A program made the translations under genes and the position numbers. Of a DNA stretch of 64,000 nt, positions 7,761 through 58,799 are shown piece after piece. Each line of letters begins with the position of its first letter. Within the stretch, counting starts at the first letter, position 1. The notes under the pieces were generated by a model, which was given only the letters and a program-made list of their open reading frames with translations, searched no databases and had not been told where the DNA came from. Origin of the DNA: a virus; IMG/VR virus record IMGVR_UViG_3300020477_000001, positions 1 to 64,000 of that record. One strand, 5' to 3'.

Positions 7761-9068
7761 ATGGCTAATACAAGAAAAAGAGTATTTTATCAAAGTGAAA
7801 ACTTGCATGTGGCTCCATCTGGCTCTACTAACGGCAACTTAGCCGCTGGTGAAGTTACCCAGATTCACCGTGTGCAAAGTATCAATTACAGTTTTGAAGT
7901 AACCAGAACCGATGTTAACCAATTCGGTCAGTTGGCTGCTATTGACAGAGTTATTGTTGAGCAGCCATCTGTTAGCTTGGACTTCAACTACTACCCCACA
8001 ACTGGTGGCGAGGAATCCGGTATCGGATTGAGACTCGGCACTGGTATCAGTGCTGTTACCAGCATTATTGATGGTAAAGCAGACACAAAGAGTTACTACG
8101 TATTTACTGCCCCAGAAGGTAAAGATGCGAACATCGACTTCGATGACGTTGGTACGCTCGCGGGCGGTTCCGATGGTGACGCAGTTAATGTTGTATCTGG
8201 TGGCGATGCAGACGGAACTTCTGAGGTTGCTGGTGATATTGGTGTCATCGCTCTCGGTAACTGCTTCTTGACTTCTTACAGTGCCGAAGGTTCTGTTGGT
8301 GAGTTCTTGAGTGCTTCCGTTAACGTAGAAGCCTTGAACATGCTGTTCGACTCTAACCCGAATACGGTAACTAACCCGACTGTAAACGTAGAGAACGGAA
8401 CACTTTCTCAATACTCGTCTGCAAATATCGAGATTCCAAACGAGCGTTTCGGAACTACCACGGGTGCTGCGGATCAACCTGCTGCTCTTCGTCATGGTGA
8501 CATTAGCTTGCACAATGCTGTTGCTGGTAGTATCAGCAACTACAATGACATTGTTTCTGGTCATGCGTTTGGAGATATGAAGGTTCAGAACTTCAGCTTC
8601 TCGTTTGACCTAGGTCGTGAAGACTTACAGCGTCTCGGAAGTAAGTTCGCCTTTGCTAAGGTAATTGAGTTCCCAGCTACTGCGACTCTTGATTTGTCTG
8701 CTGTTGTTGGCGTTTACTCAAGTTCCAGTACTGACGTTGCTACTTCTGATGCCCGTAACCCGATCTTCGGTGTTCATGGCTTCTTGGAAGATGACTCGAA
8801 TAAAGCTAACTTAGCGGTTCTCTGCCACAAGCCAAATTCGGCTGGAGTTGCTGCGACTGCGACTAGTTTGACGCATGACGACAATAAGGGCAACATCGGT
8901 ATGTACTACGCGATTCATGGCGCAAAATTGGATAGTCAATCCTTCTCCTCCTCGATTGGAGACAGTAAGTCGGTTGACTTGTCCTTCTCGACGCAAATCG
9001 GTGGACCTACTGACCAAGTTAATGGTATTAGAGTAGCGAACGGTAAATTGCTCGATAACGGAGCATAA
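7761..9068 (+). CDS. Major tail tube protein
   Basis: Beta-rich with RVQSINYSFEVTRTDVNQFG and VQNFSFSFDLGREDLQRLG (internal duplication); strong RBS; followed by a terminator, then chaperones and the TMP. Confidence 0.75.
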   Translation: MANTRKRVFYQSENLHVAPSGSTNGNLAAGEVTQIHRVQSINYSFEVTRTDVNQFGQLAAIDRVIVEQPSVSLDFNYYPTTGGEESGIGLRLGTGISAVTSIIDGKADTKSYYVFTAPEGKDANIDFDDVGTLAGGSDGDAVNVVSGGDADGTSEVAGDIGVIALGNCFLTSYSAEGSVGEFLSASVNVEALNMLFDSNPNTVTNPTVNVENGTLSQYSSANIEIPNERFGTTTGAADQPAALRHGDISLHNAVAGSISNYNDIVSGHAFGDMKVQNFSFSFDLGREDLQRLGSKFAFAKVIEFPATATLDLSAVVGVYSSSSTDVATSDARNPIFGVHGFLEDDSNKANLAVLCHKPNSAGVAATATSLTHDDNKGNIGMYYAIHGAKLDSQSFSSSIGDSKSVDLSFSTQIGGPTDQVNGIRVANGKLLDNGA

Positions 9069-9553: not shown

Positions 9554-10516
9554 ATGAATACTCTGTATAAATTCGATGTTATTCGAAACATCACTTCAAA
9601 GTACGAAGAAAAATCCAAAAATGACGAAGGTGAGGAAGTAACCGTCACCAAAACAAAGTCTGAAAAAAAGCCCGTAAAGCTGGTAATTCGTAAACCAAAC
9701 AGAAGGCTCTATGAAGACGGAGAGTTGTTTTACGCGGTAAAACTTGGCGAAGGTATTAAGGCTGGCCTTTTAACAAAGGCTTTCATCGTTAAGAAATTCC
9801 AAAATGCAATGGAAGAAAAAGATGAAAACAGGGAAAGGAAAGAATACGCCGAGCTTTACTACAAACTCCTTAAAGAACAGGAAGAGTTAGAAAAACTAAG
9901 GCTTAATCTAGACAATGAGGACGAAGAGTACCGCAGTAAAAAAGCTGCTGAATGTGTAGCTAATATTCAATCTACTCAATCCAAAATCCAAGAGTATGAG
10001 CTAGCTCAAAACAACCTCTTTGATCAAACCGCCGAAAAGAGAGCTCAAAACCAGACAATTATGTGGTGGGTTCTGCATACTGCTTATTATGATCAAGACG
10101 AAAACGGCAATTATGAGCCAGTGTTCGGAGACGGAGACTACGATAAAAGAATCGAGGAATACGATAGACTCGAAGAAAAGAATGACCCTTTCTGGACTGA
10201 GGTGGTTAAAAAGTATGCTTATTTTGTTACCTTTTGGTACTTGAATGGAGTTAATAGTCAAGATCAGTTTGACGAGGTCGCAAACATGTTCTCTCGTGAC
10301 AACTTTGAGGAAAGTTTGGGCGAAGAAAAGACCGATTCCGAGGGTTCTGAGGAGGCTGAAAAGAAAGAAGAGTCAGAGCCAGAAGAAACCAAAACTGAAG
10401 AAAAATCAGAAGAGGAAACCAAGGAAGAGGCTCCTGCCAAAAAAGCAAAGACCAAGGCTAAAAGAGGCAGAAAGAAAAAGACGGAAACACCACCTTCCGA
10501 AGAATCTTCTTCGTAA
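9554..10516 (+). CDS. Putative tail assembly chaperone
   Basis: Between tail tube and TMP; coiled coil with an acidic then Lys-rich low-complexity C-terminus. Confidence 0.55.
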   Translation: MNTLYKFDVIRNITSKYEEKSKNDEGEEVTVTKTKSEKKPVKLVIRKPNRRLYEDGELFYAVKLGEGIKAGLLTKAFIVKKFQNAMEEKDENRERKEYAELYYKLLKEQEELEKLRLNLDNEDEEYRSKKAAECVANIQSTQSKIQEYELAQNNLFDQTAEKRAQNQTIMWWVLHTAYYDQDENGNYEPVFGDGDYDKRIEEYDRLEEKNDPFWTEVVKKYAYFVTFWYLNGVNSQDQFDEVANMFSRDNFEESLGEEKTDSEGSEEAEKKEESEPEETKTEEKSEEETKEEAPAKKAKTKAKRGRKKKTETPPSEESSS

Positions 10517-10535: not shown

Positions 10536-11564
10536 GTGGAACAAGCCAAAGAAGACGAAAGTCTCTATACTAAATTGTATAGTGACATAATTGATGGCTA
10601 TTCTTCCTTCTCTCATAACGGCAAAGAAGTATTCATAAAACACGTATCCCAAACAGATTTTGGATACTTAGAGCAATTCGAAGACGACGAGAAGAATAAA
10701 GCTATCGAAAAAGGCTTACCTACCGAAAAAGAAAAGTTAAAAGACTTAATAGATCAATCTCTTTGGACTCAGAAACAAGAAGACCTTATAAATATTTTAA
10801 AAAAAGAAATCGAAGATAAAGAGATAATTATTAGCAAATTAATTATTGCTAGACAGATTCAACACACAAGAAAGCAAAAAGAAGCCTTAGAAAAAGACTT
10901 GCTCGAATTAACTTCAGAAAGAGAAGAACTAATAGGGTATACAGCAGAAAAGTACTCTGGTAAAAAATCTAATTTAGAAATTTTAAGGTTTACTCTTTTT
11001 AAAGATAAAGAATTCGAAGAGCTTCTTTTCGATAACGAAACTTTCGATCTCATGGACGATTCAGAACTCAATACATTGTTATTGAGTAATAATTCTATTC
11101 TGAACGATTTTACTCAAAGAAACTTAAAAAAGATAGCAGCGACGGGCTTTTTTCTTAATGCTTTTTTGATTGCTGAATCGAATGTTATGAATTTCTACGG
11201 TAAACCCGTGGTTCGACTCACTAATTACCAAATTGATATATTTAACCATGGATTAAAGTACAAAAACGTACTTGAAAAAGGTAAAACTCCTCCATCTGTT
11301 CTTACTTCCTTGGATGAAATTGTTGATTGGTACGAAGGTCAAGCCAGCGGTAAAACTGAGTACTCTGAAAACACGAAAAATAAGACGGGTCAAACCTTGG
11401 TTGGGGCATCCAAGCATGAGATGGAAACCATGATGGAATCAGCTAGGGGTAATAAGGAAGAGGAGGCCGTTACCTTGAATGACGAGGTGAAAAAGATGCA
11501 AAAAGGCAGAGAAAACAAAGTTTTAGATTTTAATGATATGTTGAAGATTCATGGAGAAATCTAG
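10536..11564 (+). CDS. Putative tail assembly chaperone (second)
   Basis: Directly upstream of the TMP; helical/coiled-coil; GTG start. Confidence 0.55.
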   Translation: MEQAKEDESLYTKLYSDIIDGYSSFSHNGKEVFIKHVSQTDFGYLEQFEDDEKNKAIEKGLPTEKEKLKDLIDQSLWTQKQEDLINILKKEIEDKEIIISKLIIARQIQHTRKQKEALEKDLLELTSEREELIGYTAEKYSGKKSNLEILRFTLFKDKEFEELLFDNETFDLMDDSELNTLLLSNNSILNDFTQRNLKKIAATGFFLNAFLIAESNVMNFYGKPVVRLTNYQIDIFNHGLKYKNVLEKGKTPPSVLTSLDEIVDWYEGQASGKTEYSENTKNKTGQTLVGASKHEMETMMESARGNKEEEAVTLNDEVKKMQKGRENKVLDFNDMLKIHGEI

Positions 11565-11594: not shown

Positions 11595-14500
11595 ATGGCT
11601 AGGGATATTGTATTATCGATTGACGGCGATACTAGACCGTTAGTAAGGCGACTAAATAAGGATATTAGTCGTGCCTCTAGGTCTGCTTCGTTCGAGATGA
11701 ACGATAAGAACTTTTCTCAACCGCTCGGAAGAATCACTGGTCAACTAGGAGAATTCGACCGAGCCCTTGACGCTTCTAATGCTCGTGTTTTAGCATTTGC
11801 CGCTTCTGCTGGTGTATTGCTTGTTGTTCAGAAAGGGTTCCAAGCCGTTTTCAGTTCGATGGTTAACGTCGAGAAGAAGCTGGCTGACATCAATGTTCTC
11901 TTTGGCGCAAGCGAAAAGTCTTTGGCTAAGTTTGGCAATTCTTTGTTTGGCGTAGCTAGCGAAACTGCTCAAGGCTTTGATGAAGTAGCGGTTGCTGCTA
12001 CCGAGCTAGCTCGTCAAGGTTTAAGTGCTGAAGAGACTTTAAAAAGAACCAGAGACGCTTTGATTCTGGTTAGGTTGACGGGCATGGACGCGGCTGAAGC
12101 GGTACAAGCTGTTACCGCAGCTTTGAACTCTTTCTCAAGGGCAGCGATTGATTCTACTGAGTACGTGAGTAAGCTAGCTGCTGTTGACGCAGCGTTTGCC
12201 GTAGGTTCTGACGACTTAGCTGCTGCTGTATCGCGTGTTGGCAGTAGCGCTCAAGAAGCTGGAGTTAGCCTTGATCAGTTGATAGCGATTGTAACCGCTG
12301 CTCAACAGATAACTGCTCGTGGCGGTGCTGTTATTGGTAACTCGTTTAAAACTATCTTTACTAGAATCCAAAGACCGCGAGTTCTAAAACAGTTAGAAGA
12401 ATTGGGAATCAGAACTCAAGACTTAGGCGGTAAGATTAGGCCCGCCTTGACAATCTTAAAAGAACTAGCTCAAACCTACGATTTACTTGCTCAATCTCAA
12501 CAAGCTCAGATCGCTGAGTTAATTGGTGGCGTATTCCAAGTAAACGTACTCAAAGCCTCTTTGCGAGACTTGGGTAAAGAGTTTTCACTTTACAACAATG
12601 CTCTAAATATTTCTAACAACGCTACAGATGAAGCTATTAGAAGAAACGAAGAGCTAAACAAAACTGTTTCTGCAAGCTTAAACCAAGTAGTTCAAAACTT
12701 CACTAAGTTTGGCGCTCAAGCTGGTAAAGCCATACTTGGGCCACTAACCAAAAACGTCAGTACTGGAATCAATGCCGTTATTGGAGAATTTTCTTTAGAT
12801 AGAGCAGAGAAGAACATAGAAGACGACTCAAGAAGCTTAGGTAACAAGATTGTTTCTGGAATATTTAAGGGAGTAGGAAAGTTCCTTGGAACTGGTGGTA
12901 TTATTATTGGAATTAAGATTCTATTTAATACCTTTAGAGAATTTACAAGATACGCAATTGATGGAGTAAAAAAATTAGGAGCCATTGGTGGTCAAACAAG
13001 AGACCAAATAGAATTACAAGGTCAAGTCACAAGAGAGCTAGAAAAACAACCCGAACTCTTAAGGCAATTAGTAAATGGAGAAATAGACGCCAAGGAAGCA
13101 GCCGATAAACTTTACAGTAGCTTAAAGCAGAATACTCAAGAGCTAAAAATACAAAAAGACTTGGTCGAATCATTTGCCTACGCCATGTCGGCTAAAGGAG
13201 TGAGAATAGCTCCCACAACAGCGGGTGCTACTACAATTGATCCAGCAAGTGTTGCTAACGTTGGTTTTGTTCCTAATTTCACAAGCACAAAAGATTCCAT
13301 TGCTGCTGCTGTAGAGCTTTCTTCCGCAAGTTACGCAAACTCAAGTACAAAAGCGATCAAAACGAACATCGACGGTATTGGCTCGGTGATGACTAACTCG
13401 AAAGAGAAGATAGTCAAACACCCGTCATTCAAACAACCATTTGTTAATCCGCCCATCACAAGTCCAGAGGGTAGAGCTCACAAGAGAAGATCAATAGATA
13501 AAACTGGCGTTGATCCGTACAAACATGCCTTCGGCGGATTCATTCCGAACTTTGCCCTTGATCCAGAAAAGATAGTAGGAAAACTAGACAAAAAGAGCGG
13601 AAAGCGGGGTAAAACTTTAAGGGATCAAGTCGCAAGCGTTAAGAGAGACGCAGGTCAGTATCTTGATGCCAAGCAAAAAATGGATTTATTTTATGAGAAA
13701 AAAGAAACAACTGGATTTAAAAGTTTAAATGACGCTGCGGGTGCTTTGGGTGTAGGTGATAGATTCTTCGAGACAAGCAAATACGGTAGATACAGACTTG
13801 CGGCTTTGGTTGACAAATTTGGTGGCGGAGATGTAAATAATTTACCGCAAGTTATTAGAAATCACGCTGACGATTTAAAAAATATAAAAGCTAAAGATCA
13901 AGAAGCTCAGAGCTCTGGTAAGGAATTTGAACAAAGATTAGCTAGCAAATTAAACTATGAATTAGTAGCGAACGAACCAATTGACTTCGGAAAAGGAATT
14001 GGTAATCCCAATGGAATAAGATCAACCATTGGAATGGAAGATACCTACGCTTACGCTGACGCAATCGATTCGAGAAGAGGCCATGAAGAAGGTCTTTATC
14101 TGGATAAAGTATTAAGATGGCAGCGCCAACAAGAGGGCACTCCAGTAAATGCGACTTCAATTCTAGGAAACTTCTTAAAAGGAGAACAACTCCATAAATT
14201 CGGAAATCTTTCTCCAGTCGAAGTAATTGGGGTAAACAGCGAGGCTGAAAACGTTGGTGGTCGGTATGGAGTAGAGAACGAAAGAGAATTTTTTCCTTGG
14301 ATTGACTCGACATCCAGAAGTAAAGGCGCTTCACAAGAAACCAGAGAAGAATTTAAAAAAGCTAATGAAGGCGGCGTTCCTTTACTGGAGAGTGTACGAG
14401 AAGCAGCGACAGAAGGACAAATCAGATCACCAAGAATATCTTGGTCTTATGACAGGGACAATGTTTCTACCAAAGCTTTGGGTATGAGCGGCGGACATAT

Positions 14501-17500
14501 TCCTAACTTTGAAGCTATTGCTGCTGCTCAACCGTTACCGTCTGTGCCAATTGAATCAAATCCAAATTGGATAAAATTAAAAGAAAAAATAGATGACGGC
14601 ATAGCTAAATATGGTTTTGGAGATATGCGGGCTAATTTAATAGAGGATTCAAGAGTATCTATTGATGGTATTAATAGTTTCCTTAATAATGGAACCCTAG
14701 CCCCAACCAAAGAAGACTCTCAAAAGAAAATGCAGGATGCTTCTTACAAGGGTCTTTATAATTTCGTCAATAGTGATGTCCCCAGCCAAAAAAGAATAGA
14801 TAGTTTAATAAAAGATGCCAGAGAAAATAAAGAAACAGTAGATAGAAGGCTTTTAGATATTTCCACTGAAGATGTAAATAAAGAAACTTTCTTTGAGACT
14901 TTGAAAACCTTGGCTGGTTCTTTAATGATGACATATGGTCTTCCAGTATTAATCGCAAAAGCAGCGAAAACATATCCCGCTGCTGCTGTGGCACTCGCTG
15001 CCGCGAAGACTCCTGTTGGCATCGCCACTGGCGTTCTTAGTGGCGTGGGCTTGGCATCGTTAGCTTTCTGGAAAGAAGGGAAAGCTAAAAACGAAGCTGT
15101 TGAGTTGAGTAATGGTTTAGAAGGTAGCCTTGGAGGAATTGAAGATTACAACACCGAACATAACAATCTAAGAAAAGAAGCTATAGTTAAAGCTTCCTTA
15201 GTTTCTAAACCAACAGAATTACATCGAGGTACTTTATACAGCTACGGAGATGTAAGTTCCAGATTATCTGAAAATACTAAAGCATGGCCAGAAGGCGTGT
15301 CTATAGGAGAACAGGATGGTTTCCCAATATGGAGTGCTGCCAACACTATGTTTTATAAAGGGAAAGATAACACAGTACGTCATGAAACATTAGATAATTT
15401 GGGTGGTAGCTCAAAAGACAGTGAGGAAAACTTAGCGGGATGGCCTAGATTAAACATTAACGAAATCAACAAGGCAGCGGGTTTAGCTAAAATGAGGGGA
15501 ATTACAGCAGCAAAGAATTCTTTCTTTGCTGACCACAAACGAGAAAATATAAATAAAATAAATGGCCCTGCTGATTCTGCGTATGTTAAAGGATTTATTG
15601 ATAATATTAAAGGAATCAGAAATGAAATTAATAAACGCTTAGAAGATAATTTGGATGTCAATTCATGGACTCGCCCAGACCATATTGTTTCTAGCAAAGG
15701 CTACATACCTAATTTTGAAACGCTTGATGAGCGAGGGCTTCCACCTCTACCGACAAATAAAGAGATGGAAGTGGCGCGTTCGTTAAAAAAAGCATTTAAG
15801 AATAAACAAATAGTTAAACATCCAACAATAGGACCAAGAGGTAAACATTACGTAGCTATGGGGCTTGGTTCGAGAGCTCCTAGATATGGGGGCGGGGTCG
15901 ATAACCGAACTATACCATATACTATCATATCCGCATCTGCGGAAACAGCAGAGGAGACTGGGTATCTTTCAGCCGATTACAATAAAGGAGGTGGTTTTCT
16001 GACGCCTTTCTTTGATGGTATAATGAATTATAATAATAGAAATATTGACCAATCAGTAACAAGAGGGTCTGGTTTAGCTAGATTCTCTATGTTACAAAAA
16101 TTCGCGAGGGAAAAAGGCGCTTCAATAGATTCAGAATCTATAGTAACAAACCCCAACCTATTAAAGAATGTAGAATATAAACACAAATATGGAACGCGAG
16201 ATGAACTGATAAACCCCGACGATAAATATGCGAGTCTTCGAGAAGAGAAAGAAGAACTTTCGGAAAAAATAAGAGAATTAAGAGGTCAATATCTAAAAAA
16301 TCGTGACGGCGACGAAGAGTTGAACGAACCATCGGGCATTGGATATGCATCACTTCCCGACAACAACCCGTTCCGAGGGCTCGAAAGAGATTTTCCTGCA
16401 AGCCAACCTAGCGAGAAACAAAAAAAACTTCTTAAACAAATTCAAAAATTAGAAGGCTCTAGAAGCGAAATAAAGGATGAAAAGCGACAAAGGATAGCAG
16501 AGCTTATAGAAGAGAATTTTAAAAATACTCAAGCTGATAAAAGAAGTGCTTGGGCTAAGCTTATAGAAATTATTCCCCAATTAAAATATAGAATGGGTAA
16601 GGCTGGCGGTGAAGGCGTTATTACGCAGGGAGAGTTTTATAGCTCACTTCCAAAAAACGAAACATTACCATCAATCTTAGACCCTTATGAATTTAAATCC
16701 CTTAATGATCTTCGCAATTTCGTTTATAATATTGTACAAAAACACGGCGCTTCAGAATTTAATAAACATATAGTTGGTTTGGTTGATGATAATAATGACG
16801 GTAAATTTGATGCAGGAACTATCCCACCGAATTTGGCGGCGTTGGGAAAAAGTCTGGGCGTAAGCGAATTAAAAACTATTCCTATTGAAAATCTTCCTGC
16901 TGGATATTTCGGAGGGAAACCTCACCAAGATGATTCTAATGTACCTTTCAACAGCAAAGGATTCGTTCCCAACTTCGTTAAATTTAATCCTTCTAATCCG
17001 CCAGCGTTAAGAAAACCAGCTATTGCATTAAAGCTCAAGAACAAAGAAATACATTACGATCCAGATTCTTTGATGCATTATCAAGCTGCCGAGAATTTAA
17101 ATATTTTACCAGAAGAGATACTAGAACATGGATTTATAAATAAAGGAAAATATGAATCTTCTTTCTTCTCTGATTTTGAAAAAATTGCAGACAGACAAAA
17201 GGCTGGTATAGGAGAGTTCGCTGACGCTTCTGAAGCTCTTGGAATTCCACGCGGAGAGCCATTGCCGAGAGGCGGCATTGTTACAGCCGATCAAATGAGG
17301 GCTCCTGCAATAGATAGATCGAGCCTTCCTCGTGGTCATGCTCCTATGAGAGGACCATCAAGACCAATGAGGTATGGTGGTTTTGTTCCTAATTTCTTAA
17401 AAATACCAAAAGCTACGAGTGAAAAGGGCGGCGGATCACTTCACGTTATGCTTGCTGAGATGCTTCAAAGCAACGCAGGTAAAGTTGTAGAAGCGGTTTC

Positions 17501-20500
17501 CAAGACTCCCAAGCTTTTTAATAAATTTAAAAACTCAATCAAGCTAAGAGAATTCGGAGAGCAAGATACTTACGGCGGCATAACTGCTAGCGAAGGTTTA
17601 GTACCTAACTTCCTTAACATTCCTAAGCCCACCTCAGAAAAGGGCGGCGGCAAGTTAGTGGACATGATTCTGGATACCCCAGAACTACTCATGAAGTTCA
17701 AGGACTTTGTTCGCAACAACATGAGAGAAACGCTGGAAGCTTTCGACAAGTGGACAGACACTCCTTCTGAGTTGGCTCAAAAATATATAGATGGAAACCT
17801 ATATCGCGGATACATTCCTAATTTCAGTAGCGCTTTGGGAGATGCGATTAACAGAGAAAAATCTGCGGGCATTTCGAGTAGCAGTATCAGAGTAGATTCT
17901 GATCCCTCGCTTAAGACGAAACAAAATCCGATGGGCTTAGGTGTTTACAACACCAAACAAGAAACGAGCCTTAAGCAAGGAATAAAATTTTCCAAACAAG
18001 CTGGAATCGATCCTAAAACTAAAGGAGCGTTTAGAGGACATATTCCTAACTTCGCGGCAGATAGAGCACCAGCGGGCGGCTTAGAATTCCAAGGAAAAGA
18101 ATACAAGGGCGGGCAGTTCATGCCAGAAGGCTCTGTAGACACAGCGTTACTAACTTCGATAAACAATGCGCTCAAGGGAACTTTGGATAAAGCTAAAGAA
18201 ATGACTAGCTCTATGAGCCAAGCTGTTTCTGGAATCGAGGGTTTACAGAAAGCCTCTAGCCAAATGGCTGACTCTATGAGCGAGGCTGTTTCTGGAATCG
18301 AAAGCTTACACCAAACCTCTACTCAAATGGCTGACTCTATGGGTGATGCTGTTGCTCATTTAGATGATTTAGGTAACGGGATAATGGGCCTTCAAAACAT
18401 TCAAAGTCAGCAACTAACCGCCGCTCAAGAAGGGTTAAAGCAAGCTAAAAATCAAAGCATAAACCAATACGTTACGGCTGTGAAGACAAGTGAGATAGCT
18501 GCTTCAATGCAAGCCCAAGCTGACCTTGCACAACAGCAAGAAGACGAAAGACAAAGAGGATTGCAGTTAGAAAAAGATAGAAACAAAAGAATTGCTGCTA
18601 ATGTAAAAGATGCGGGCACTACAGCGCTCAATATCCTAAGCACAGGTTTCGAGGGCGCAGCGCCAGCGGGAGCACCAGAGATCGGCATAAAGAAATTAGG
18701 AGAAGACTCAGATGTTAAAACCAGCCTAGGAGACAGGCTAAAGACAGACCTAGGAGCTTTTAAAATAGAAGAAAAACACGATGTCGATCAATCTGCCGCA
18801 GCGCAGGAAGCATATGACCGACTAAGCGCAGCAGTACGCGCAGCAAGTCAAGCCGCAGAGCAGGAAACAAAGAAAATAGAAGGCTTAGTACCTAAAGACT
18901 TACAAGGTAAATTTCAAGAATTTGGTTCGTTAACGGATGATGCACAAAAGGCTATAGCTGCTAGCGCTAATAACATGACGGTAGCTGAGTTTGAGAACGA
19001 GACGGAAGACGAGCAACAAAAACTTAAGGACGCTCTTGCAGCTTCAGTCAACCACGTAAATAAATTTAACGCAAACCAAGAAACCTACAACGACGCAATC
19101 TCAGACGCAGAAAAACAATTAAAAGCAGCAAACTTAACGAAAGTAGATAGAGTTGAAATTGACCCAGCGAAGCTAGCGCAAAAACAAGAAGCTGGCACAA
19201 TCTCTGTAGACGAGCTAAAAGACGCTCAAGCAGCAGTCTCCAGACAACTCAGACAAATGGATTCAGATATAGCTGATTACAGACGAACACTAGACGAAGG
19301 CACTACATTCACTCCAGAGGGAGACAAGCTTCAAAGTCAAGCCGCAATGGATGCCGAAGCAAAAATAAAAGAGTTAAACGACAGCAGAGAAGAGCTCGCA
19401 GATAAACTCAAGCAAATCAGTAAAACAACAAGCGAAGCTACCTTAAAAGATTTAGAAGCCAGCAGCGCACAAGTCAAAGAAGCTTTGGATAAATTAGGTA
19501 AAAACGCTTCATCAATGGACTTTACTGACTTAATACAAAGAGAAACCAAAGATAAAAATAGAGAAAGAGCGATAGCTGGAAAAGGCAAGGGCATAGGAAC
19601 AGAAAACGTTTCCCTTGGTGGTATATTTGGTGCTTTAGGTAAGAAGTTCACTCAGCAAGCAGACGCCAGTGATGATGTTCAACAAAAAATGTTCTTCATG
19701 AGTTCAGCCATTAGCACTGTTAGTGGAATGTTCGATTCTTTTGGTGAAGAAGGCGCAGCACTAAACAAAGGAATAAGTGGTATGACCGATGGCGTGAACA
19801 CCGCCACGGGAATTATTTCCACGTTACCCGGTCCTTGGGGCAAGGCTGTCGGCATTGTAGCTGGCGTAGGTGTTGCTCTTAACGGCGTAGCAAAAGCTAT
19901 ATCTTCTAACAAATTAGATGTTGCTGGCCTTAAGAAAAAAGCAGACCAAGCTGGAGAAAAGTTTACTGAACTCTCAAACAATATCACTGCATACGCTAGC
20001 GCATTTTCGGAGCTTCAATCTGCTGCGGCAGACATGAACACTCCAGCCGATCAAATCATAAGACTCAATAAAAAGCTAGAAGATTTAATAGCGAGCGTTC
20101 CGCCTAAATTCGCCGCTGACTTAGCAGCGATAACAGACCCAGCAGACCTTCAAGCCAAAGTAGCTGAAATCATTGCGGGCGAGCAAAAGAAAACCAAGTC
20201 CATAGAGTTTGCTGCTTCATCAGCCGAAAGAATGGATGCTAATGCTGGTATAAGTAATCTCTACGGATTCGCTTCTCCAGTTGCTCAGTTCGATGGTAAA
20301 GAGGGTGCAGTGAATCTAGAAAGAGCGGCGGGAGACTTGAGTCAACTCATTGACTTCGAAAAACTACAAAATGGTTTGGGCAAAGCTTCTACAGCGATGG
20401 AGAAAGATGCTACAGAAAGATTGCTATCTGCAAATAGCGCTAGCGAAATGGCTAACGCCATGAAACAAGGCTTCGGCGCTACCGAAGAATTAGCTAACTC

Positions 20501-23500
20501 GATTCGCCAAATGAACCAAGGCGACTTGCAAATTCTTAGAAAGAGATTAGTGGACATGGCCAATGCTGCAAGAAGAGCAAGAGAGGCAATGGAGAAGGTA
20601 GCGGCAGAAAGAGCAAAAGTATCCACAGATTTAGAAATACCGAAGCTACAGTTAGCAATTCAAGCCGCAACTATTAATGTTGAGCAAGAAGAACAGATGC
20701 TGGGTACGGCTGGCGGAGGTATTGAAGGATTCAAAGACCCGCAATCTCTTAATGCTGCGTTTGATTCATTTACAGCAGCGCTAGGTCAGTTAACGGCGCA
20801 AACAACGTCACCGGGAGCACAAGGAGCAGCCACTGGACAGGGCAGAGCAGTACTTGGTCTTGTCGAAGGTCTCAGAGACATAGCTGGCATCATACCAACA
20901 GTTGACGATTCCGGTCAAATGACTTCTGAGTTCAAAGACTTCAGAGACACTGTAGCGGCTGGAATAGAAGAGTCTATCAGAGAACAAACCAAAGCTCAGT
21001 TAAAACAGGCTCAAGCTCAGATGGCAGTAGCCACTGATTCCGATGACATTAGACAACTTGAATCCGTAATAGGACTACTGCAAAATAGATTAAGTGATGC
21101 AGATTTCATTTCTCAAGCAGCGATGAAACAAGCTGACGAGGCTATTGGCACTGTAGGTGTTGAAGTTAAGACTATTCAAATTCCAGCAGAAGGTTCTACG
21201 CGCATAGGAGAAACCATAGGTACAACTATGGAAGGGTTTGGCGTTACAGGAGCAAAAGCAGACCAAACACTCATCGATGCTAATGATGAGATTGCTTACC
21301 AACTCCAGAGAATGCAAAAGCGAGAAGCCGAATTAGAGAAAAAGAAGAAAGCGGGAACCCTTACTGACGACGAAAAACAAGAGCAAGCAGACTTAGCGAC
21401 AGCAATAAAATCACTAACAGACATAGGAACAGTCACTAAAGATACCACGGCTGGTCAACTGCAAAGTTTACAAGTAGTTGACGCGGCTACTGGAGAAATA
21501 GGAGACCTATTTAAGGGAGACCGGATGCAGGTAGGCGGAGATTTGACTCCAGCCCAAAAAGCCTTGATGCGTAAGCAGGACGAACTAAGAATTGCTACTG
21601 ATAAATTAGCTGAAGCCACAAGAGACGCCGCCGCAAAGGTTAAAGAAGAGCAAGAAAAAGAAGTAGCACGAGAAGGTGGCAGAAACCTTCTCCAAGGAAT
21701 GACCCAGACTCAGCAATTTGTAACTGGCGCTGGGACAGACTCATTGTTTGGCGGAGCAGAAACTCAAGCTGAACTAGATCAAGGTGGATTTGTTGCTAGA
21801 GCAATACAAGAGCAAGCAGGAAATCTTGGGATTTTGAATTGGACTGAGATGGGAGGATTGACTAAGGCTGATCGTGGAGAAGCCGCCTCTGAGTTCATAA
21901 TGGGAGAAAGAGAAGTTGGCGACACCGGAGTCAAGAGCATGGAGGGTCTGGTGGAAGCTATGAGAGTTGTTTCTCAAAAGGCTGAGGAAAGCGCTGGTAG
22001 AGAATTGGGCGTAGGTGATTTGCAAAGTTTAGCTTTTGGCAACCTAGATTTTGAGGGAGACTTGACTCAAGAGGGTGTGCGAGACGCTATGATGGAAGCT
22101 CTTAAAACTGAGATGAATATCAAAGACGAGCAAGCCGCAGAATTACTAGATCATATTTTCAAAGTATTTAAGAACGATAAAAACGGTGCAAATACAAACC
22201 AATTACTCAAATCAATTCTAGCTTCTACGAACAAAGACGAATTCCAGAAGATGGATAAAATGGCCGAAAAGGCAGTGCAACCGGGTAGTATTTATACTAA
22301 CGACCAAAAGGGACGCGAAGAATTACAGAAGCTAAGAGAAATGATGGCCAAGAACTTTGGTCAATCTCAAGAAGACGTTGAAAAAGCCAAAGCAACAGTA
22401 GAAAAAGAAAGACAAGAAAACGCCGTCAAGATTCCCTTCACCAACATGGCTCTTCCGAATATATCTGACTTATCCGCAGGAAACATGGCTGCTGGAGCAG
22501 TAACTGCAACTGGGGCTGGTATCGCTGGTTACAAGGGAACTAAATTTGTAGCTCAAGCTGGTAAAGACGCGCTAGGCGCTGGACGGCAAGCGGCGATGCG
22601 TGGGATGGGCTCTGAAAAGGTGTGGTTTGGCGACGAAAGAGGACAAAAGAGAGGCACTTTCAGAGAAGAGTATAAAAAAAGAAGAGAAGCAAGAAAGAAA
22701 AAGCCCGCCGCAGACGCTCCAGACCCTAAAGCAACAGATACTCCAGAGCCTAAAAGCACTAAACCCAAGGCTGGCGCTGACAAGATAGACGATCTTAGAG
22801 GAAAAGGCCCAAGACCAACTCCTAGCACAACAGGAACAGCGGCAATTGATGATGCAACGCGGACAGCAACGACTACTGCTGAAACGCCCAAGTCTAAGCC
22901 CAAGATTGAAAGAAGATTAGCTGGCAGCAAACCCGCGCCTACCACAGCGCCTAAAAAACCAGCAATTAGAATAAATCGACCATTTATAGAAGGCTACGGG
23001 GGTCAGCAAATTGACCCAGTTACTAAAAAGCCAAATGTGGCAGGAGCAGTAGACGACGTTGCCGAAGCTGGAACTAAAGCTGCCACAAAAACTACAACAG
23101 CCACCAAGGGCGTTGCTAAAGGTACTGAAGCGGCTGCTAAGTCAGCAAGTAAACTTACCACCGCTTTAAAAGTAGCTGGCAAAGCAGCCGTTGTTGTTGA
23201 CGCAGCATTAGTTGGTTGGGACGCATACAAGGTCACAGAAGCTCTTGCTACTGGTAACTTCGATGAATACGCTCAAGCTTATGAGGATGCGAATAAAAAC
23301 GCTGGTATTCTCACTAGAAGTCTGAACGGAATGTCTAGTCCGATCACCGCTGTTGCTACTGACATAAAAATAGTAAGTGATACATTTAGCGCTTACTCTG
23401 ACGCAGCGCAACTCGCGGCTGACGCAAACAAAAAGATGGGCGAGCAAATAGGCAAGAGTTCCGAAAATATAATGAACTTCGGAAAACAAGCCTTGAATGT

Positions 23501-25973
23501 TACTTCTAGCTCTGTAGATTCTAGCGTGGTCGGTGGAATTGCTTCTCACATTATGGCTCAAAATGAAGCTGCGGCTAGAGAAGGCAAAGGCAATGAAGCT
23601 ATAACTATGTTACAAGCCTCTGGCGGCTTAGGAAAAGAGAAGCACAGAATAGCTGAATTAGCTGGATCAAGAGAAAGAGCAGTTAAAGAGTCTGGAGAAA
23701 GAGCTAGGCAAAGGGCTGAAGCCGAGTTGGGTGGCGAAGGTGGAATGAAAGATCAATTCGCCAATTTATTAGAAGTAGGAAGATTGTCAACTGGGCTCAG
23801 TGCAGACATAAGAAGTGGTAAAGGTGCGTTTACATTGGCTAGACCAGATTACGACGATAATCAAATGAAGCTTAGTGACCTTAAGAAATGGCTAGAAACA
23901 AATAAAGATATGAGGCCAGAAGATAGAGTTAAGGGAATGAGGCAGATTGATAAAGCTCAAGCGATGGGAATCACAACTCTTGGCGGGTTAAGAGGAAAAG
24001 AGAAGGAACTAGCCCGACAAATAGAATTCAAGAAAACTAAAATCGCAGAAGAAGAACTAGCCAAATCATTATCTGCTGCTGGGATAAACATTGAAGAGTT
24101 TACCAAAAAAATGGGAATAGACCTTGGTCAACTTGCCTTAGACTTAACCAACGACGCAGATATCGGTCAAGGAGCATTAGACAAGCTAGGCGCAGCGGTA
24201 GCTACAGAAGTGACGGCTCAAGAAACTGCCAAGGTAGGCAAAGAAAGAATTGAGCAATTTAAAGAACAATCTGCTGGTGGCAAATTCTCTGTCTTGGATG
24301 ACATGACAAAGAGAATAGAAGAGCTCAGAGGTAAGGAGTCTCTTACTAAAGAAGAAACCGCAGAATTACAAAACCTACAAGCAGGAAAAACAGCAAGACT
24401 TGCTAACATTAGACAAATACAGGGAACTCAAGGTGACGCAGCAGCAGCCGAATATGTAACTCTTCTAGAGCGGCTAGATCAGATGAATCAACGCAAAGCG
24501 GACCTACAATCTCAAGGTATAAGCACTGATAATGTTCAACAAGTTATAGATTCTATAACAACAGGTCTATCTGCTTACGGTTTCGGAAATGAAGCAACGC
24601 AGAAAAAAGACGATCTTGAGAAAATGCAAATAGCCGCAATGACGGCTGGAGGAAAATCTGGCGCTGCCAATACAATAACCCAAAATAACAAAGAACTAAG
24701 TGGCCTCAATGAGGAATTGAGGGACTTAGAGCTATCGGCAGCTAGCGATGATAGTGAAGAGAATTTAGATCGTGTAAAGAAAAGAAGAGATGAGTTAATG
24801 GCTCGAAAGGCTCAAATAGAAGAAGAAAACAAGAGCATTAAAGCCGAAACCTTAGCTGATCCGAAAGTTTATGCCGCCTTCCAAGAAGTAGCCGCAAAAG
24901 ATCAAGGAAGAGCAAGTAGAGACGTAGATGGACTTGATGCTGCTCAAAGAGCTAAGGTGCTATCTGGGTTCCGTGGGCGCACTGATCATGGTGGTAAAGA
25001 CCAGAGCATGTACGGCGAAGAAGACCCAATGGGCGTATTAGGAAAAGAAAAGAGCGTCACCCCTGTATTTGTTGTTAATTGGCCACAGGCAGGAATTGGT
25101 CAAGGCGCAATGGGCGGCGATTTACCGCCTGTTGTTAAAGCATTGCAAGCATCTATGGGCGACCAAGTTGCAAATACCTTCCACAGGCGTGGTCAATCTC
25201 TCGGCGCTTCTGGTGGTGCTTTTGGTTATGGCGGAATAGGTGGAGCAGCAACGAATCAAAGCGCAATTCAGAGATTTGTCACCCGTGGTCAAATGGGGGA
25301 CACGATGTCTTCCGCGATGTCTAACGCTGGTTATCGTCAGTCTATAGCTCAACAAATGGGCGCATTTAGCCCACTTGGAGGAGCCAGAACAGTTGGCGCT
25401 GGTGGGCCGATGACGAGCATAGAAAGTATGCCTCAAGCTGGCGGAAAAGATGTACCTTTGAGGATTGACGGAATCTTTAGTTTAAACGAAAATATATTAA
25501 AATTAAACGAGAGCATAAGAGCGGCATTCTTGGGAGAAACAGCAGGACCGGACGCGAAAACAACCCCAGATGAAGCCGCAGTCGAAGCCGCAGCAGAGAC
25601 GGTTGCAGCAGAAGCAGCAGAAGTAGACACTTCCGGTATAACAGAAAGTATCGAAGCATTGAAAACTGTATTAACTGAATCGAACGAGTCTCTCAGTAGT
25701 GCTTTCACTGAAAATACTGCTCTTCAGTACGAACAGTTTGCAGCGTTTGTAAGTGCTCTAGGTGGTCTAGTTTCTCAGTTGAGCAAGGGAGCTACTCTTG
25801 ACATCAACCACGCAATTACTCATGCTGGTTCTATAGATACCAATGTGATTGGTGGAGCTCAGTTCGATGCTTTGCAGGATGGATTGGGGCAAGTAGCTGG
25901 CGAAGTGGGGGTTAATCTAAACCCGACAAATGGAGGCCCAACGCCTCCTGCTGGGGGCACTCAACCAGCTTAA
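11595..25973 (+). CDS. Tape measure protein (4792 aa) with internal GxxPNF-delimited modules
   Basis: The N-terminus has TP901-family TMP core motifs (AATELARQG, GAVIGNSFKTIFTRI, LKQLEELGI). Long Ala/Glu/Lys-rich helical regions; lies after the tail tube and chaperones. Confidence 0.9.
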   Translation: MARDIVLSIDGDTRPLVRRLNKDISRASRSASFEMNDKNFSQPLGRITGQLGEFDRALDASNARVLAFAASAGVLLVVQKGFQAVFSSMVNVEKKLADINVLFGASEKSLAKFGNSLFGVASETAQGFDEVAVAATELARQGLSAEETLKRTRDALILVRLTGMDAAEAVQAVTAALNSFSRAAIDSTEYVSKLAAVDAAFAVGSDDLAAAVSRVGSSAQEAGVSLDQLIAIVTAAQQITARGGAVIGNSFKTIFTRIQRPRVLKQLEELGIRTQDLGGKIRPALTILKELAQTYDLLAQSQQAQIAELIGGVFQVNVLKASLRDLGKEFSLYNNALNISNNATDEAIRRNEELNKTVSASLNQVVQNFTKFGAQAGKAILGPLTKNVSTGINAVIGEFSLDRAEKNIEDDSRSLGNKIVSGIFKGVGKFLGTGGIIIGIKILFNTFREFTRYAIDGVKKLGAIGGQTRDQIELQGQVTRELEKQPELLRQLVNGEIDAKEAADKLYSSLKQNTQELKIQKDLVESFAYAMSAKGVRIAPTTAGATTIDPASVANVGFVPNFTSTKDSIAAAVELSSASYANSSTKAIKTNIDGIGSVMTNSKEKIVKHPSFKQPFVNPPITSPEGRAHKRRSIDKTGVDPYKHAFGGFIPNFALDPEKIVGKLDKKSGKRGKTLRDQVASVKRDAGQYLDAKQKMDLFYEKKETTGFKSLNDAAGALGVGDRFFETSKYGRYRLAALVDKFGGGDVNNLPQVIRNHADDLKNIKAKDQEAQSSGKEFEQRLASKLNYELVANEPIDFGKGIGNPNGIRSTIGMEDTYAYADAIDSRRGHEEGLYLDKVLRWQRQQEGTPVNATSILGNFLKGEQLHKFGNLSPVEVIGVNSEAENVGGRYGVENEREFFPWIDSTSRSKGASQETREEFKKANEGGVPLLESVREAATEGQIRSPRISWSYDRDNVSTKALGMSGGHIPNFEAIAAAQPLPSVPIESNPNWIKLKEKIDDGIAKYGFGDMRANLIEDSRVSIDGINSFLNNGTLAPTKEDSQKKMQDASYKGLYNFVNSDVPSQKRIDSLIKDARENKETVDRRLLDISTEDVNKETFFETLKTLAGSLMMTYGLPVLIAKAAKTYPAAAVALAAAKTPVGIATGVLSGVGLASLAFWKEGKAKNEAVELSNGLEGSLGGIEDYNTEHNNLRKEAIVKASLVSKPTELHRGTLYSYGDVSSRLSENTKAWPEGVSIGEQDGFPIWSAANTMFYKGKDNTVRHETLDNLGGSSKDSEENLAGWPRLNINEINKAAGLAKMRGITAAKNSFFADHKRENINKINGPADSAYVKGFIDNIKGIRNEINKRLEDNLDVNSWTRPDHIVSSKGYIPNFETLDERGLPPLPTNKEMEVARSLKKAFKNKQIVKHPTIGPRGKHYVAMGLGSRAPRYGGGVDNRTIPYTIISASAETAEETGYLSADYNKGGGFLTPFFDGIMNYNNRNIDQSVTRGSGLARFSMLQKFAREKGASIDSESIVTNPNLLKNVEYKHKYGTRDELINPDDKYASLREEKEELSEKIRELRGQYLKNRDGDEELNEPSGIGYASLPDNNPFRGLERDFPASQPSEKQKKLLKQIQKLEGSRSEIKDEKRQRIAELIEENFKNTQADKRSAWAKLIEIIPQLKYRMGKAGGEGVITQGEFYSSLPKNETLPSILDPYEFKSLNDLRNFVYNIVQKHGASEFNKHIVGLVDDNNDGKFDAGTIPPNLAALGKSLGVSELKTIPIENLPAGYFGGKPHQDDSNVPFNSKGFVPNFVKFNPSNPPALRKPAIALKLKNKEIHYDPDSLMHYQAAENLNILPEEILEHGFINKGKYESSFFSDFEKIADRQKAGIGEFADASEALGIPRGEPLPRGGIVTADQMRAPAIDRSSLPRGHAPMRGPSRPMRYGGFVPNFLKIPKATSEKGGGSLHVMLAEMLQSNAGKVVEAVSKTPKLFNKFKNSIKLREFGEQDTYGGITASEGLVPNFLNIPKPTSEKGGGKLVDMILDTPELLMKFKDFVRNNMRETLEAFDKWTDTPSELAQKYIDGNLYRGYIPNFSSALGDAINREKSAGISSSSIRVDSDPSLKTKQNPMGLGVYNTKQETSLKQGIKFSKQAGIDPKTKGAFRGHIPNFAADRAPAGGLEFQGKEYKGGQFMPEGSVDTALLTSINNALKGTLDKAKEMTSSMSQAVSGIEGLQKASSQMADSMSEAVSGIESLHQTSTQMADSMGDAVAHLDDLGNGIMGLQNIQSQQLTAAQEGLKQAKNQSINQYVTAVKTSEIAASMQAQADLAQQQEDERQRGLQLEKDRNKRIAANVKDAGTTALNILSTGFEGAAPAGAPEIGIKKLGEDSDVKTSLGDRLKTDLGAFKIEEKHDVDQSAAAQEAYDRLSAAVRAASQAAEQETKKIEGLVPKDLQGKFQEFGSLTDDAQKAIAASANNMTVAEFENETEDEQQKLKDALAASVNHVNKFNANQETYNDAISDAEKQLKAANLTKVDRVEIDPAKLAQKQEAGTISVDELKDAQAAVSRQLRQMDSDIADYRRTLDEGTTFTPEGDKLQSQAAMDAEAKIKELNDSREELADKLKQISKTTSEATLKDLEASSAQVKEALDKLGKNASSMDFTDLIQRETKDKNRERAIAGKGKGIGTENVSLGGIFGALGKKFTQQADASDDVQQKMFFMSSAISTVSGMFDSFGEEGAALNKGISGMTDGVNTATGIISTLPGPWGKAVGIVAGVGVALNGVAKAISSNKLDVAGLKKKADQAGEKFTELSNNITAYASAFSELQSAAADMNTPADQIIRLNKKLEDLIASVPPKFAADLAAITDPADLQAKVAEIIAGEQKKTKSIEFAASSAERMDANAGISNLYGFASPVAQFDGKEGAVNLERAAGDLSQLIDFEKLQNGLGKASTAMEKDATERLLSANSASEMANAMKQGFGATEELANSIRQMNQGDLQILRKRLVDMANAARRAREAMEKVAAERAKVSTDLEIPKLQLAIQAATINVEQEEQMLGTAGGGIEGFKDPQSLNAAFDSFTAALGQLTAQTTSPGAQGAATGQGRAVLGLVEGLRDIAGIIPTVDDSGQMTSEFKDFRDTVAAGIEESIREQTKAQLKQAQAQMAVATDSDDIRQLESVIGLLQNRLSDADFISQAAMKQADEAIGTVGVEVKTIQIPAEGSTRIGETIGTTMEGFGVTGAKADQTLIDANDEIAYQLQRMQKREAELEKKKKAGTLTDDEKQEQADLATAIKSLTDIGTVTKDTTAGQLQSLQVVDAATGEIGDLFKGDRMQVGGDLTPAQKALMRKQDELRIATDKLAEATRDAAAKVKEEQEKEVAREGGRNLLQGMTQTQQFVTGAGTDSLFGGAETQAELDQGGFVARAIQEQAGNLGILNWTEMGGLTKADRGEAASEFIMGEREVGDTGVKSMEGLVEAMRVVSQKAEESAGRELGVGDLQSLAFGNLDFEGDLTQEGVRDAMMEALKTEMNIKDEQAAELLDHIFKVFKNDKNGANTNQLLKSILASTNKDEFQKMDKMAEKAVQPGSIYTNDQKGREELQKLREMMAKNFGQSQEDVEKAKATVEKERQENAVKIPFTNMALPNISDLSAGNMAAGAVTATGAGIAGYKGTKFVAQAGKDALGAGRQAAMRGMGSEKVWFGDERGQKRGTFREEYKKRREARKKKPAADAPDPKATDTPEPKSTKPKAGADKIDDLRGKGPRPTPSTTGTAAIDDATRTATTTAETPKSKPKIERRLAGSKPAPTTAPKKPAIRINRPFIEGYGGQQIDPVTKKPNVAGAVDDVAEAGTKAATKTTTATKGVAKGTEAAAKSASKLTTALKVAGKAAVVVDAALVGWDAYKVTEALATGNFDEYAQAYEDANKNAGILTRSLNGMSSPITAVATDIKIVSDTFSAYSDAAQLAADANKKMGEQIGKSSENIMNFGKQALNVTSSSVDSSVVGGIASHIMAQNEAAAREGKGNEAITMLQASGGLGKEKHRIAELAGSRERAVKESGERARQRAEAELGGEGGMKDQFANLLEVGRLSTGLSADIRSGKGAFTLARPDYDDNQMKLSDLKKWLETNKDMRPEDRVKGMRQIDKAQAMGITTLGGLRGKEKELARQIEFKKTKIAEEELAKSLSAAGINIEEFTKKMGIDLGQLALDLTNDADIGQGALDKLGAAVATEVTAQETAKVGKERIEQFKEQSAGGKFSVLDDMTKRIEELRGKESLTKEETAELQNLQAGKTARLANIRQIQGTQGDAAAAEYVTLLERLDQMNQRKADLQSQGISTDNVQQVIDSITTGLSAYGFGNEATQKKDDLEKMQIAAMTAGGKSGAANTITQNNKELSGLNEELRDLELSAASDDSEENLDRVKKRRDELMARKAQIEEENKSIKAETLADPKVYAAFQEVAAKDQGRASRDVDGLDAAQRAKVLSGFRGRTDHGGKDQSMYGEEDPMGVLGKEKSVTPVFVVNWPQAGIGQGAMGGDLPPVVKALQASMGDQVANTFHRRGQSLGASGGAFGYGGIGGAATNQSAIQRFVTRGQMGDTMSSAMSNAGYRQSIAQQMGAFSPLGGARTVGAGGPMTSIESMPQAGGKDVPLRIDGIFSLNENILKLNESIRAAFLGETAGPDAKTTPDEAAVEAAAETVAAEAAEVDTSGITESIEALKTVLTESNESLSSAFTENTALQYEQFAAFVSALGGLVSQLSKGATLDINHAITHAGSIDTNVIGGAQFDALQDGLGQVAGEVGVNLNPTNGGPTPPAGGTQPA
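13263..18053 (+). repeat. Nine dispersed G-[FYHL]-[IV]-P-N-F peptide motifs within the TMP
   Basis: Motif starts at 13263, 13536, 14493, 15699, 16959, 17379, 17595, 17808 and 18036 (aa 557, 648, 967, 1369, 1789, 1929, 2001, 2072, 2148). Confidence 0.95.
18210..18355 (+). repeat. 63-bp (21-aa) tandem repeat in the TMP
   Basis: MSQAVSGIEGLQKASSQMADS / MSEAVSGIESLHQTSTQMADS / MGDAV; gctgtttctggaatcga and caaatggctgactctatg recur 63 bp apart. Confidence 0.85.
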
Positions 25974-55138: not shown

Positions 55139-55167
55139 AGATTAGGTTGTTTTTTAATTTTAGTCAA
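55139..55167 (-). promoter_or_regulatory. Sigma70-like promoter TTGACT-17-TAATCT
   Basis: Minus strand reads TTGACT AAAATTAAAAAACAACC TAATCT ctaaccATG. Confidence 0.7.
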
Positions 55168-57775: not shown

Positions 57776-58395
57776 TTCAATTTATTCCAAACTTTTAGAT
57801 TGAGTTTAAGGTCAACGATAGCATTATGTAGGTTATCGTAATCGTGATCTATGTTGAATTCCTTACCTAACCAAGTGAGGTTGCTTTTAATTTTCTTAAA
57901 TCTAGTGTGATAGATTTTATATTGGTAAGCGGTGAAATCCATTTCTCCGTCGTAAGGCACTTCGCCTTTGATACCTCTGGCTATACAGTTCGTGTCTATC
58001 ATTTTGGAGACAAGGTGCTTATAGTCCTTGCCCATGTATTTGTAAAAGTCTCTAATTAGGTAAAGGTCAAACCCAAGAATGTTGTGACCAACTACGTAGT
58101 CTGCGTTATCTAGCCAATCCATGACCGTGGGTAAAATGCCTTCTGGAGCAACGCCTTTTTTTTCCATGTCTTTTGGGTTGTACTTAGTAATTCTTGCTGC
58201 ATCTTCGCTGATTTCTAGATCAGTTTCCCATTTAACATAAAAATCTTTTTCATCTACAGATTTGTCTCCTTTAACCTTGAGCATCGAAATCTGCCAAGGC
58301 AGATTGTGACACGAGTGTAGGCAAAGATTAAATGTTTCGCAGTCAATGAAGACTAGCTCTTTGCTCTTGTTAAATCTTAGCAGGTGTTCGTCCAT
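57757..58395 (-). CDS. DEDDh 3'-5' exonuclease (DnaQ/epsilon-like)
   Basis: FIDCET, VGHNILGFD, IDT and LHNAIVDL. Confidence 0.88.
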   Translation of the reverse strand: MDEHLLRFNKSKELVFIDCETFNLCLHSCHNLPWQISMLKVKGDKSVDEKDFYVKWETDLEISEDAARITKYNPKDMEKKGVAPEGILPTVMDWLDNADYVVGHNILGFDLYLIRDFYKYMGKDYKHLVSKMIDTNCIARGIKGEVPYDGEMDFTAYQYKIYHTRFKKIKSNLTWLGKEFNIDHDYDNLHNAIVDLKLNLKVWNKLKWQVQI

Positions 58396-58799
58396 TATCT
58401 TTTAATTCGGTGACTGTCGCTATCCTTGTGGTGTGTGCTTATTTCTATAAACTCTACATCTCCATCGTAGGCTATTAATTGATGAGGTAAGCCTCTGGGT
58501 ATCTCTAGCGTTTCGCCTTCATAAATTATTCTTTTTACTTCTGTTCCTTCCATCGTGTCAATAGTATTTACCTGTAGCGAGCCTTTGGTTATGTAAAACG
58601 TTTCATGCTTCTCCATGTGGAAGTGCATCGATGAATTGTAGCCTTGATTAATTTGGAGTATCTTGCCGCAGTAATTTTCTTCTGGATTGTTCGCCATCCA
58701 GATTTCTCTACCCCAGTCCTTCTCTACAACTTTAGGTTGTCCGACTTTCCTTTCTTTCTGTTGCCCTTCTCTCCAGATTTCACCGCCAGTCTTTTTCAT
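58395..58799 (-). CDS. Cupin-domain protein (mannose-6-phosphate isomerase/sugar isomerase-like)
   Basis: VEKDWGREIW, SMHFHMEKHETFY, IPRGLPHQL and IEIST. Confidence 0.8.
   Translation of the reverse strand: MKKTGGEIWREGQQKERKVGQPKVVEKDWGREIWMANNPEENYCGKILQINQGYNSSMHFHMEKHETFYITKGSLQVNTIDTMEGTEVKRIIYEGETLEIPRGLPHQLIAYDGDVEFIEISTHHKDSDSHRIKR

Follow-up and report, generated by a model that had tools for sequence, protein, structure and literature searches.

Two probably related small modules frame an array of exchangeable segments inside a giant phage tape measure protein

The virus record IMGVR_UViG_3300020477_000001 is a complete genome of 158,301 bp with direct terminal repeats, and its first 64,000 nucleotides (hereafter the window) encode a tape measure protein, or ruler, in which two small modules, A and B, bracket an array of dissimilar segments. 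What these modules do inside a ruler is the question that this locus raises, and a preliminary description, made from the letters alone, had answered it by proposing that A and B are paralogous and constitute the fixed machinery of a cargo cassette, namely an autoprocessing domain, a protease docking site or a tail-loading signal. The explanation that we favor, with a probability of about 0.5, is that the two "bookends" are a duplicated junction domain of the ruler which frames an insertion bay, and that they serve as a structural adaptor and not as an enzyme. The coordinates of all parts of the protein, including the short "fence" peptides that separate its segments, are collected in Table 1.

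To compare the parts of the window's ruler (P0001) with those of other rulers we gathered relatives through B: five giant rulers from a protein collection, 79 of the 215 IMG/VR loci that encode a B relative, and the best 150 of 995 cluster representatives (clusters at 50% identity) that were found with a fence-B-fence profile at E ≤ 1e-3, 806 of them at E ≤ 1e-10. Among the 224 distinct relatives, BLASTP at E ≤ 1e-3 retrieved matches to A in 101 and to B in 223, as against two at most for each of the six inner segments, c2 to c7. Likewise, the window's A and B share 70% and 67% identity with their counterparts in P0003, the nearest relative, in which the inner segments are either 28–43% identical or unmatched. 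An A hidden Markov model (HMM) matched 68 of 82 related frames. The order of the modules is fixed as well: among the 106 relatives of at least 2,000 amino acids (aa), hereafter the long representatives, A lies upstream of B in all 53 of those with both modules, and the A-to-B span contains 376 of the 379 fence peptides. The bookends are clearly not as variable as the segments between them, which supports the earlier proposal that they would be fixed parts of the ruler rather than cargo.

The array between the bookends is far more variable. The 939 segments of 225 proteins fall into 286 clusters, 188 of which are singletons, and inner families occur at varying array positions. Of 51,454 significant BLASTP pairs between segments, 42,031 span at least 80% of both partners; judging from these alignments, the inner modules are swapped as whole units. 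Few of them resemble known domains: in a Pfam scan of 129 inner segments, five had any match and three were above the cut-off, these being SNase, PcfJ and a marginal CI-type helix-turn-helix. The enzyme-type inserts come from L029 and P0004 (SNase) and from L025 (PcfJ). The four large segments of the window itself (c2–c5) have no Pfam match; c2 furthermore matched no PHROG family and no PDB sequence, and a PDB sequence search and a protein atlas gave no lead for c4. The two short segments c6 and c7 are similar to each other (BLASTP E 3e-9), and both begin with L[KN]IPK[AP]TSEKGGG; this pair stands directly before B in P0003 too, and the fragment P0018 shares their start. A 56-aa hydrophobic stretch rich in Ala, Gly and Val lies in c3 (aa 1105–1160, positions 14907–15074) and contains the second-highest peak in the hydropathy profile of the ruler, at aa 1141; this could be a membrane-inserting piece.

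Every joint of the array carries the fence peptide, G-[FHYL]-[IV]-P-N-F, of which P0001 has nine copies between aa 557 and 2153, bounding eight segments. The pattern G.[IVLM]PN[FY] is confined to the ruler open reading frame (ORF): all nine occurrences are those listed in Table 1, and a six-frame search of the window and of the complete 158,301-bp genome found no copy outside that ORF. Looser [IV]PNF tetrapeptides lacking the Gly occur seven times elsewhere in the genome. Away from A and B, 523 distinct contexts yield the consensus [A/L/F]-[S/A]-[G/S/K]-G-[F/L/Y]-[I/V]-P-N-F-A, beyond which the flanks are unconserved. The Asn is present in 494 of these 523 contexts, in a search whose pattern admitted solely Asn or Ser at that position. 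The nine copies of P0001 vary at synonymous codon positions, so the target of selection is the peptide rather than the DNA; a DNA-level signal at the fences is ruled out by this variation. Gene fission at the fences was also considered and not seen. The array lies within one reading frame in 84 of 86 loci, with two or three frames in the remaining L084 and L085; in L027 and L028 there is merely an extra separate ORF with a single fence, and none of 155 proteins ends at a fence.

Are the two bookends related to each other? The segment texts of A and B read exactly as the preliminary description quotes them, and the patterns that it reported as shared are indeed present, but their spacings had been given inexactly: four residues separate GIG from NSKE in A and two separate GLG from NTKQE in B, and GVDP is followed by AF after three residues in A as against four after GIDP in B. 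Each taken with its C-terminal fence, A and B are 29% identical (BLASTP E 8e-4). Family profiles built from 40 A and 47 B sequences, each with its two fences, were aligned by hhalign at a probability of 95% (E 3.9e-8), the alignment comprising 70 collinear columns. Since fences alone inflate profile scores, we ran controls. Shuffling the inner columns of B while keeping its fences gave a mean score of 27.0 (standard deviation 1.8, maximum 33.4) as compared to the real score of 44.9, which none of 100 shuffles reached, and against A or B the scores of eight unrelated module families, likewise fence-flanked and similar in length, were 23.5–34.1. A scored 48.5 against the B family, and B scored 63.7 against the A family (E 5.5e-12). 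A and B are thus likely, though not proven, to be diverged copies of one small domain, a homology that we regard as moderately established.

Predicted structures are in line with such a relationship. The AlphaFold2 (AF2) model of B (mean predicted local distance difference test score, pLDDT, 80.4; predicted template modeling score 0.68) is a small, confidently predicted fold with helices at residues 6–19 and 55–64 and strands at 27–31 and 44–48. In the profile alignment these elements map by eye and in order onto helix 17–30, strands 39–44 and 48–53 and helix 76–89 of the A model (mean pLDDT 63.8), whose two extra strands (57–59 and 68–70) fall, in the same by-eye mapping, in an insert of about 20 aa. 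The C-terminal fence residues of the B model are fairly well scored, with one of them in a strand bridge, and the fence may pack on the B domain. Neither module could be assigned to a known fold or family. Foldseek with the B model against the PDB returned nothing at E ≤ 1e-3; VIA-align gave best Z scores of only 3.2 for B (MinE; 48,161 chains) and 2.7 for A, with no usable fold match; a BFVD search with the B model found nothing; and A and B belong to no curated family in PHROGs, NCBIfam or Pfam, the latter having been run on 47 B members. Co-folding of A with B (score 0.18, mark 0.32) weighs neither for nor against binding.

A few relatives with unusual architectures bear on the role of the domain. 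P0083, a protein of 2,583 aa with a TIGR01760 match at 81–393, has one B-type module at about aa 550 which is directly followed by the ruler body, with no array at all. This single B without an array suggests that the domain belongs to the ruler itself, so that "fixed machinery of the cassette" stands as regards "fixed" and probably fails as regards a role specific to the cassette. In P0013 one B-type module, at about aa 550, takes the place of A and another lies at about aa 1430, so that each end of its array has a B-type module. This protein is nearly devoid of canonical fences (one by the strict pattern), its joints reading "..YPNF" and "NVPNF". Two B copies are found in seven of the 106 long representatives; in L005, L003, P0008, P0010 and P0015 the second B lies mid-array and splits the array into two bays.

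The duplicated-junction explanation would run as follows. The ancestral unit would be a domain of about 70 aa, consisting of a helix, a beta-hairpin, a second helix and an extended tail that ends in the fence peptide, linking the N-terminal TP901-type domain to the long body of the ruler and flanked by a fence on either side. Duplication of this domain would have created an insertion bay between the two copies, with the B type representing the original and A the duplicate, which would be the same domain, since diverged and extended by two strands through the gain of an insert of about 20 aa. Whole modules, each with one terminal fence peptide, would then be gained, lost and exchanged between the copies, while the bookends, as adaptors, would keep the two interfaces toward the rest of the tail constant, and the inserts would presumably travel into the host along with the ruler. 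Such a history would account for the near-universal presence of B, the strict A-before-B order, the ruler with a single B and the ruler with B-type modules at both ends.

Several observations weigh against this explanation. When the fences are left out, the similarity of A and B is weak: two smaller tests gave P values of 0.021 and 0.048 with probabilities of 1–2%, and a deeper one a score of 18.9 with P = 0.0039 and a probability of just 8.6% (two of 200 interior shuffles reached 18.9, and a reversed control scored 9.6). Much of the significant score between A and B is therefore due to the shared fence peptides, and the paralogy asserted in the preliminary description, backed when the fences are included, is weakly backed (P 0.004–0.05) once they are removed. 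The A model is of low confidence. The near-universality of B is partly built in, because all relatives were gathered through B, and the canonical A profile matches just 53 of the 106 long representatives; the others have different first modules, and one of these alternative families shows a clear relationship to A, scoring 67.5 over 76 columns. Finally, cargo-free rulers are rare, fewer than three fence peptides being found in only two of the 106 representatives, and a cargo-linked role of the bookends is therefore possible.

An alternative is that the bookends are processing machinery, in which A, B or both recognize or activate the fence and a cut, made by the protein itself (for example at the Asn) or by a recruited protease, frees the inserts. 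The fence would suit such a role, as it is a strict and autonomous 10-residue signal in contexts away from A and B and is used solely in the ruler within the genome. The enzyme inserts of relatives (SNase and PcfJ) would also work best when freed, and in T5 and lambda, according to the available parts of two accounts, tail assembly involves cutting of the ruler (PMC10038345, PMC12617516). However, the modules themselves show little that is protease-like. The invariant columns of A are G9, P12, E26, A30, N53, E56, Q66, P71, P72, S75, G90, P93, Y94, G100, P103 and N104, and those of B are R16, E17, G21, L35, N40, G43, G58, G73, G77 and P80; neither contains an invariant His, Cys or Asp, B has nothing corresponding to S75, the one invariant Ser of A, and a conserved catalytic set (Ser/His/Asp, Cys/His or HExxH) is absent from these columns. 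Because neither such a set nor a curated family or solved-fold match was found, a classical autoprocessing protease in A or B is unlikely, and the autoprocessing domain suggested in the preliminary description finds no backing in that form. Family scans detected no protease domain in the ruler or the window's other ORFs, nor any peptidase family in P0001 or the 129 inner segments, and a genome-wide hunt left the S78, ClpP and S49 prohead-protease families all unmatched; a search for the S77 protease matched no control genome and is hence uninformative. Moreover, no relative splits the array into separate genes at a fence. We consider a processing role of the bookends rather improbable. Equally doubtful to us is the more far-reaching possibility of a genuine polyprotein, with cuts at all G-x-[IV]-P-N-F sites of the ruler after assembly or on ejection, possibly through Asn-driven self-cleavage on a platform provided by A and B.

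The bookends could also be specific to the loading of cargo, binding either a part of the tail (the tube wall, an assembly chaperone or the neck) or each other, with the array looped out and threaded into the tail lumen. They do stand at both ends of every array, the possible packing of the fence on B may fit such docking, and the A and B subtypes change together among relatives as judged by eye, a pattern that shared descent would produce as well. Against this, P0083 has its single B without any array, and no partner was identified. This reading too appears to us unlikely. It is very improbable that A and B are unrelated and share by chance just the fence and a few short patterns. The fence-free comparisons taken by themselves would leave room for chance, with even the best of them at 8.6% probability, but the real scores were reached by none of the fence-keeping and only two of the interior shuffles, and the A-B score is well over those of the eight natural fence-flanked controls; in addition, the order of secondary-structure elements is the same in the two models, and in P0013 a B-type module occupies the position of A.

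How does this architecture compare with known rulers? By its core-region profile the window's ruler is a TP901-type tape measure protein, with PF10145 matching at aa 123–310 (E 1.2e-27, 97.6 bits as compared to a curated cut-off of 33.2) and tape-measure PHROGs matching with a best E of 1.7e-47, and it has the N-terminal core domain in common with TP901-1/SPbeta-type rulers (PF10145, TIGR01760). TIGR01760 (tape_meas_TP901, NCBIfam) itself leaves P0001 unmatched at E ≤ 0.01, yet matches the relatives P0006 and P0083. Similarity to cultured phages is restricted to this domain: tblastn with the whole of P0068 matched rulers of Bacillus, Staphylococcus and Lactococcus phages over query aa 4–485, and tblastn with three queries (the 1,633-aa array region, a relative's B and P0068) detected neither the bookends nor the fence among 50,697 phage records. 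A blastn search of the neighboring DNA against cultured phages retrieved nothing, and among species-representative genomes bookends occur in just seven contigs of metagenome-assembled genomes.

T5 and lambda are the only phages whose rulers are known to be cut, with neither the cut site nor the catalyst yet identified in lambda, according to the accessible part of one source (PMC12617516). In T5 pb2, as described in the portion available of another, an enzymatic part is likewise embedded in the ruler, where it is set off by a cut after R1127 (PMC10038345). The ruler of lambda, gpH, resembles the present case in that its Gly-rich cut region (giving gpH* and gpHC) lies close to a short conserved unit; by eye, gpH (L088) has one such unit, "...PAGIVHRGEFV...RGYATGG". 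The window's ruler differs in having no lambda-type C-terminal unit. In 122 of the 224 relatives the C-terminal part holds a unit of this type, "D.VPAML..GEYV....V..YG..F...LN.G.hP.YA.GG" or, more loosely, "PAML..GE[YF]V ... G.hP.[FY]A.GG", with 0.88 as its median relative position (for example at aa 3061–3310 of P0006), and its end resembles the fence peptide. Compared with the A profile it aligns weakly (28% probability, E 6e-4, 28 columns), and with B just the fence aligns. Overall, a known ruler embeds a single activity and is cut, as far as known, no more than once, whereas here up to 17 fenced segments lie between probably homologous bookends.

In polymorphic toxins, short conserved pre-toxin motifs (VENN, DPxGL and others) mark the place where variable modules are exchanged, with one C-terminal toxin per protein. 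The rulers described here, by contrast, are structural tail proteins in which the peptide recurs at each of the joints. Relatives of the window's ruler contain nuclease, ATPase-like and PcfJ modules, and a further likeness may be to the polyvalent proteins, giant virion-associated proteins that string together unrelated and exchangeable effector-type domains, as set out in the available part of Iyer et al. 2017 (PMC5512222). The same part describes them as head-packaged or transfer proteins in which a zincin peptidase is often embedded, and the words "tape measure" do not occur in it; no peptidase domain was found here. Literature listings and abstracts on the motif and on cargo-carrying or processed rulers, a coverage that leaves aside subscription journals, held no description of this architecture.

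Table 1. Parts of the tape measure protein gene (P0001) in the window
Feature	Position	Strand	Evidence and conservation
Tape measure protein gene, 4,792 aa	11595..25973	+	Single ORF, PF10145, tape-measure PHROGs
N-terminal TP901-type tape-measure domain, aa 1-556	11595..13262	+	PF10145, PHROGs
Fence peptide 1, GFVPNF	13263..13280	+	Pattern search
Bookend module A, aa 563-647, 85 aa	13281..13535	+	A-HMM, AF2 model
Fence peptide 2, GFIPNF	13536..13553	+	Pattern search
Variable segment c2, 313 aa	13554..14492	+	BLASTP matches in 2/224 relatives; P0003 28%, partial
Fence peptide 3, GHIPNF	14493..14510	+	Pattern search
Variable segment c3, 396 aa	14511..15698	+	BLASTP matches in 0/224 relatives; P0003 no match
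Fence peptide 4, GYIPNF	15699..15716	+	Pattern search
Variable segment c4, 414 aa	15717..16958	+	BLASTP match in 1/224 relatives (P0003, 30%)
Fence peptide 5, GFVPNF	16959..16976	+	Pattern search
Variable segment c5, 134 aa	16977..17378	+	BLASTP matches in 0/224 relatives; P0003 no match
Fence peptide 6, GFVPNF	17379..17396	+	Pattern search
Variable segment c6, 66 aa, paralogue of c7	17397..17594	+	BLASTP matches in 2/224 relatives; P0003 42%
Fence peptide 7, GLVPNF	17595..17612	+	Pattern search
Variable segment c7, 65 aa, paralogue of c6	17613..17807	+	BLASTP matches in 2/224 relatives; P0003 43%
Fence peptide 8, GYIPNF	17808..17825	+	Pattern search
Bookend module B, aa 2078-2147, 70 aa	17826..18035	+	Fence-B-fence profile, AF2 model
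Fence peptide 9, GHIPNF	18036..18053	+	Pattern search
Long C-terminal ruler body, aa 2154-4792	18054..25970	+	No fence peptide inside

Outside the array, the N-terminal domain of the ruler is 72% identical to that of P0003 and has BLASTP matches in 162 of the 224 relatives, and the first two thirds of the C-terminal body are 45–49% identical to P0003. The ruler ORF sits within a block of large ORFs on one strand, and the neighbors match no named family. ORFs at 7761–9068, 9554–10516 and 10536–11564 precede it, and the next one downstream is at 26006–28618. Tail-fibre-like genes are located at 155–1951 and 35220–37001. The former, at the start of the record, encodes a collagen-repeat protein (PF01391, E 8e-18) and is followed at 1954–2685 by a gene for a protein with a concanavalin-like lectin domain (PF13385, E 9e-9). 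A replication block on the minus strand (55160–59554) encodes the core of DNA polymerase III alpha (PF07733, PF17657), which has no PHP domain of its own; the PHP domain is encoded by a separate ORF (58796–59554), with ORFs for an RNase T-like exonuclease and a cupin located between the two.

Tape measure proteins are usually viewed as simple rulers, and the proteins described here form a large uncultured, mostly aquatic family with a defined insertion bay. The bookend domain family is absent from the curated libraries PHROGs, NCBIfam and Pfam, and a model of it would improve the annotation of giant phage ORFs. A domain of 70 aa together with a 10-residue peptide moreover provides a testable handle on the carriage of non-ruler proteins in long tails, on the processing of rulers and on the evolution of such arrays. 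Should the polyprotein reading be true, one tail would deliver several ready-made and freely exchangeable proteins into the host before the DNA, and the long-tail lumen would serve as a protein-delivery route with its own conserved start and stop domains.

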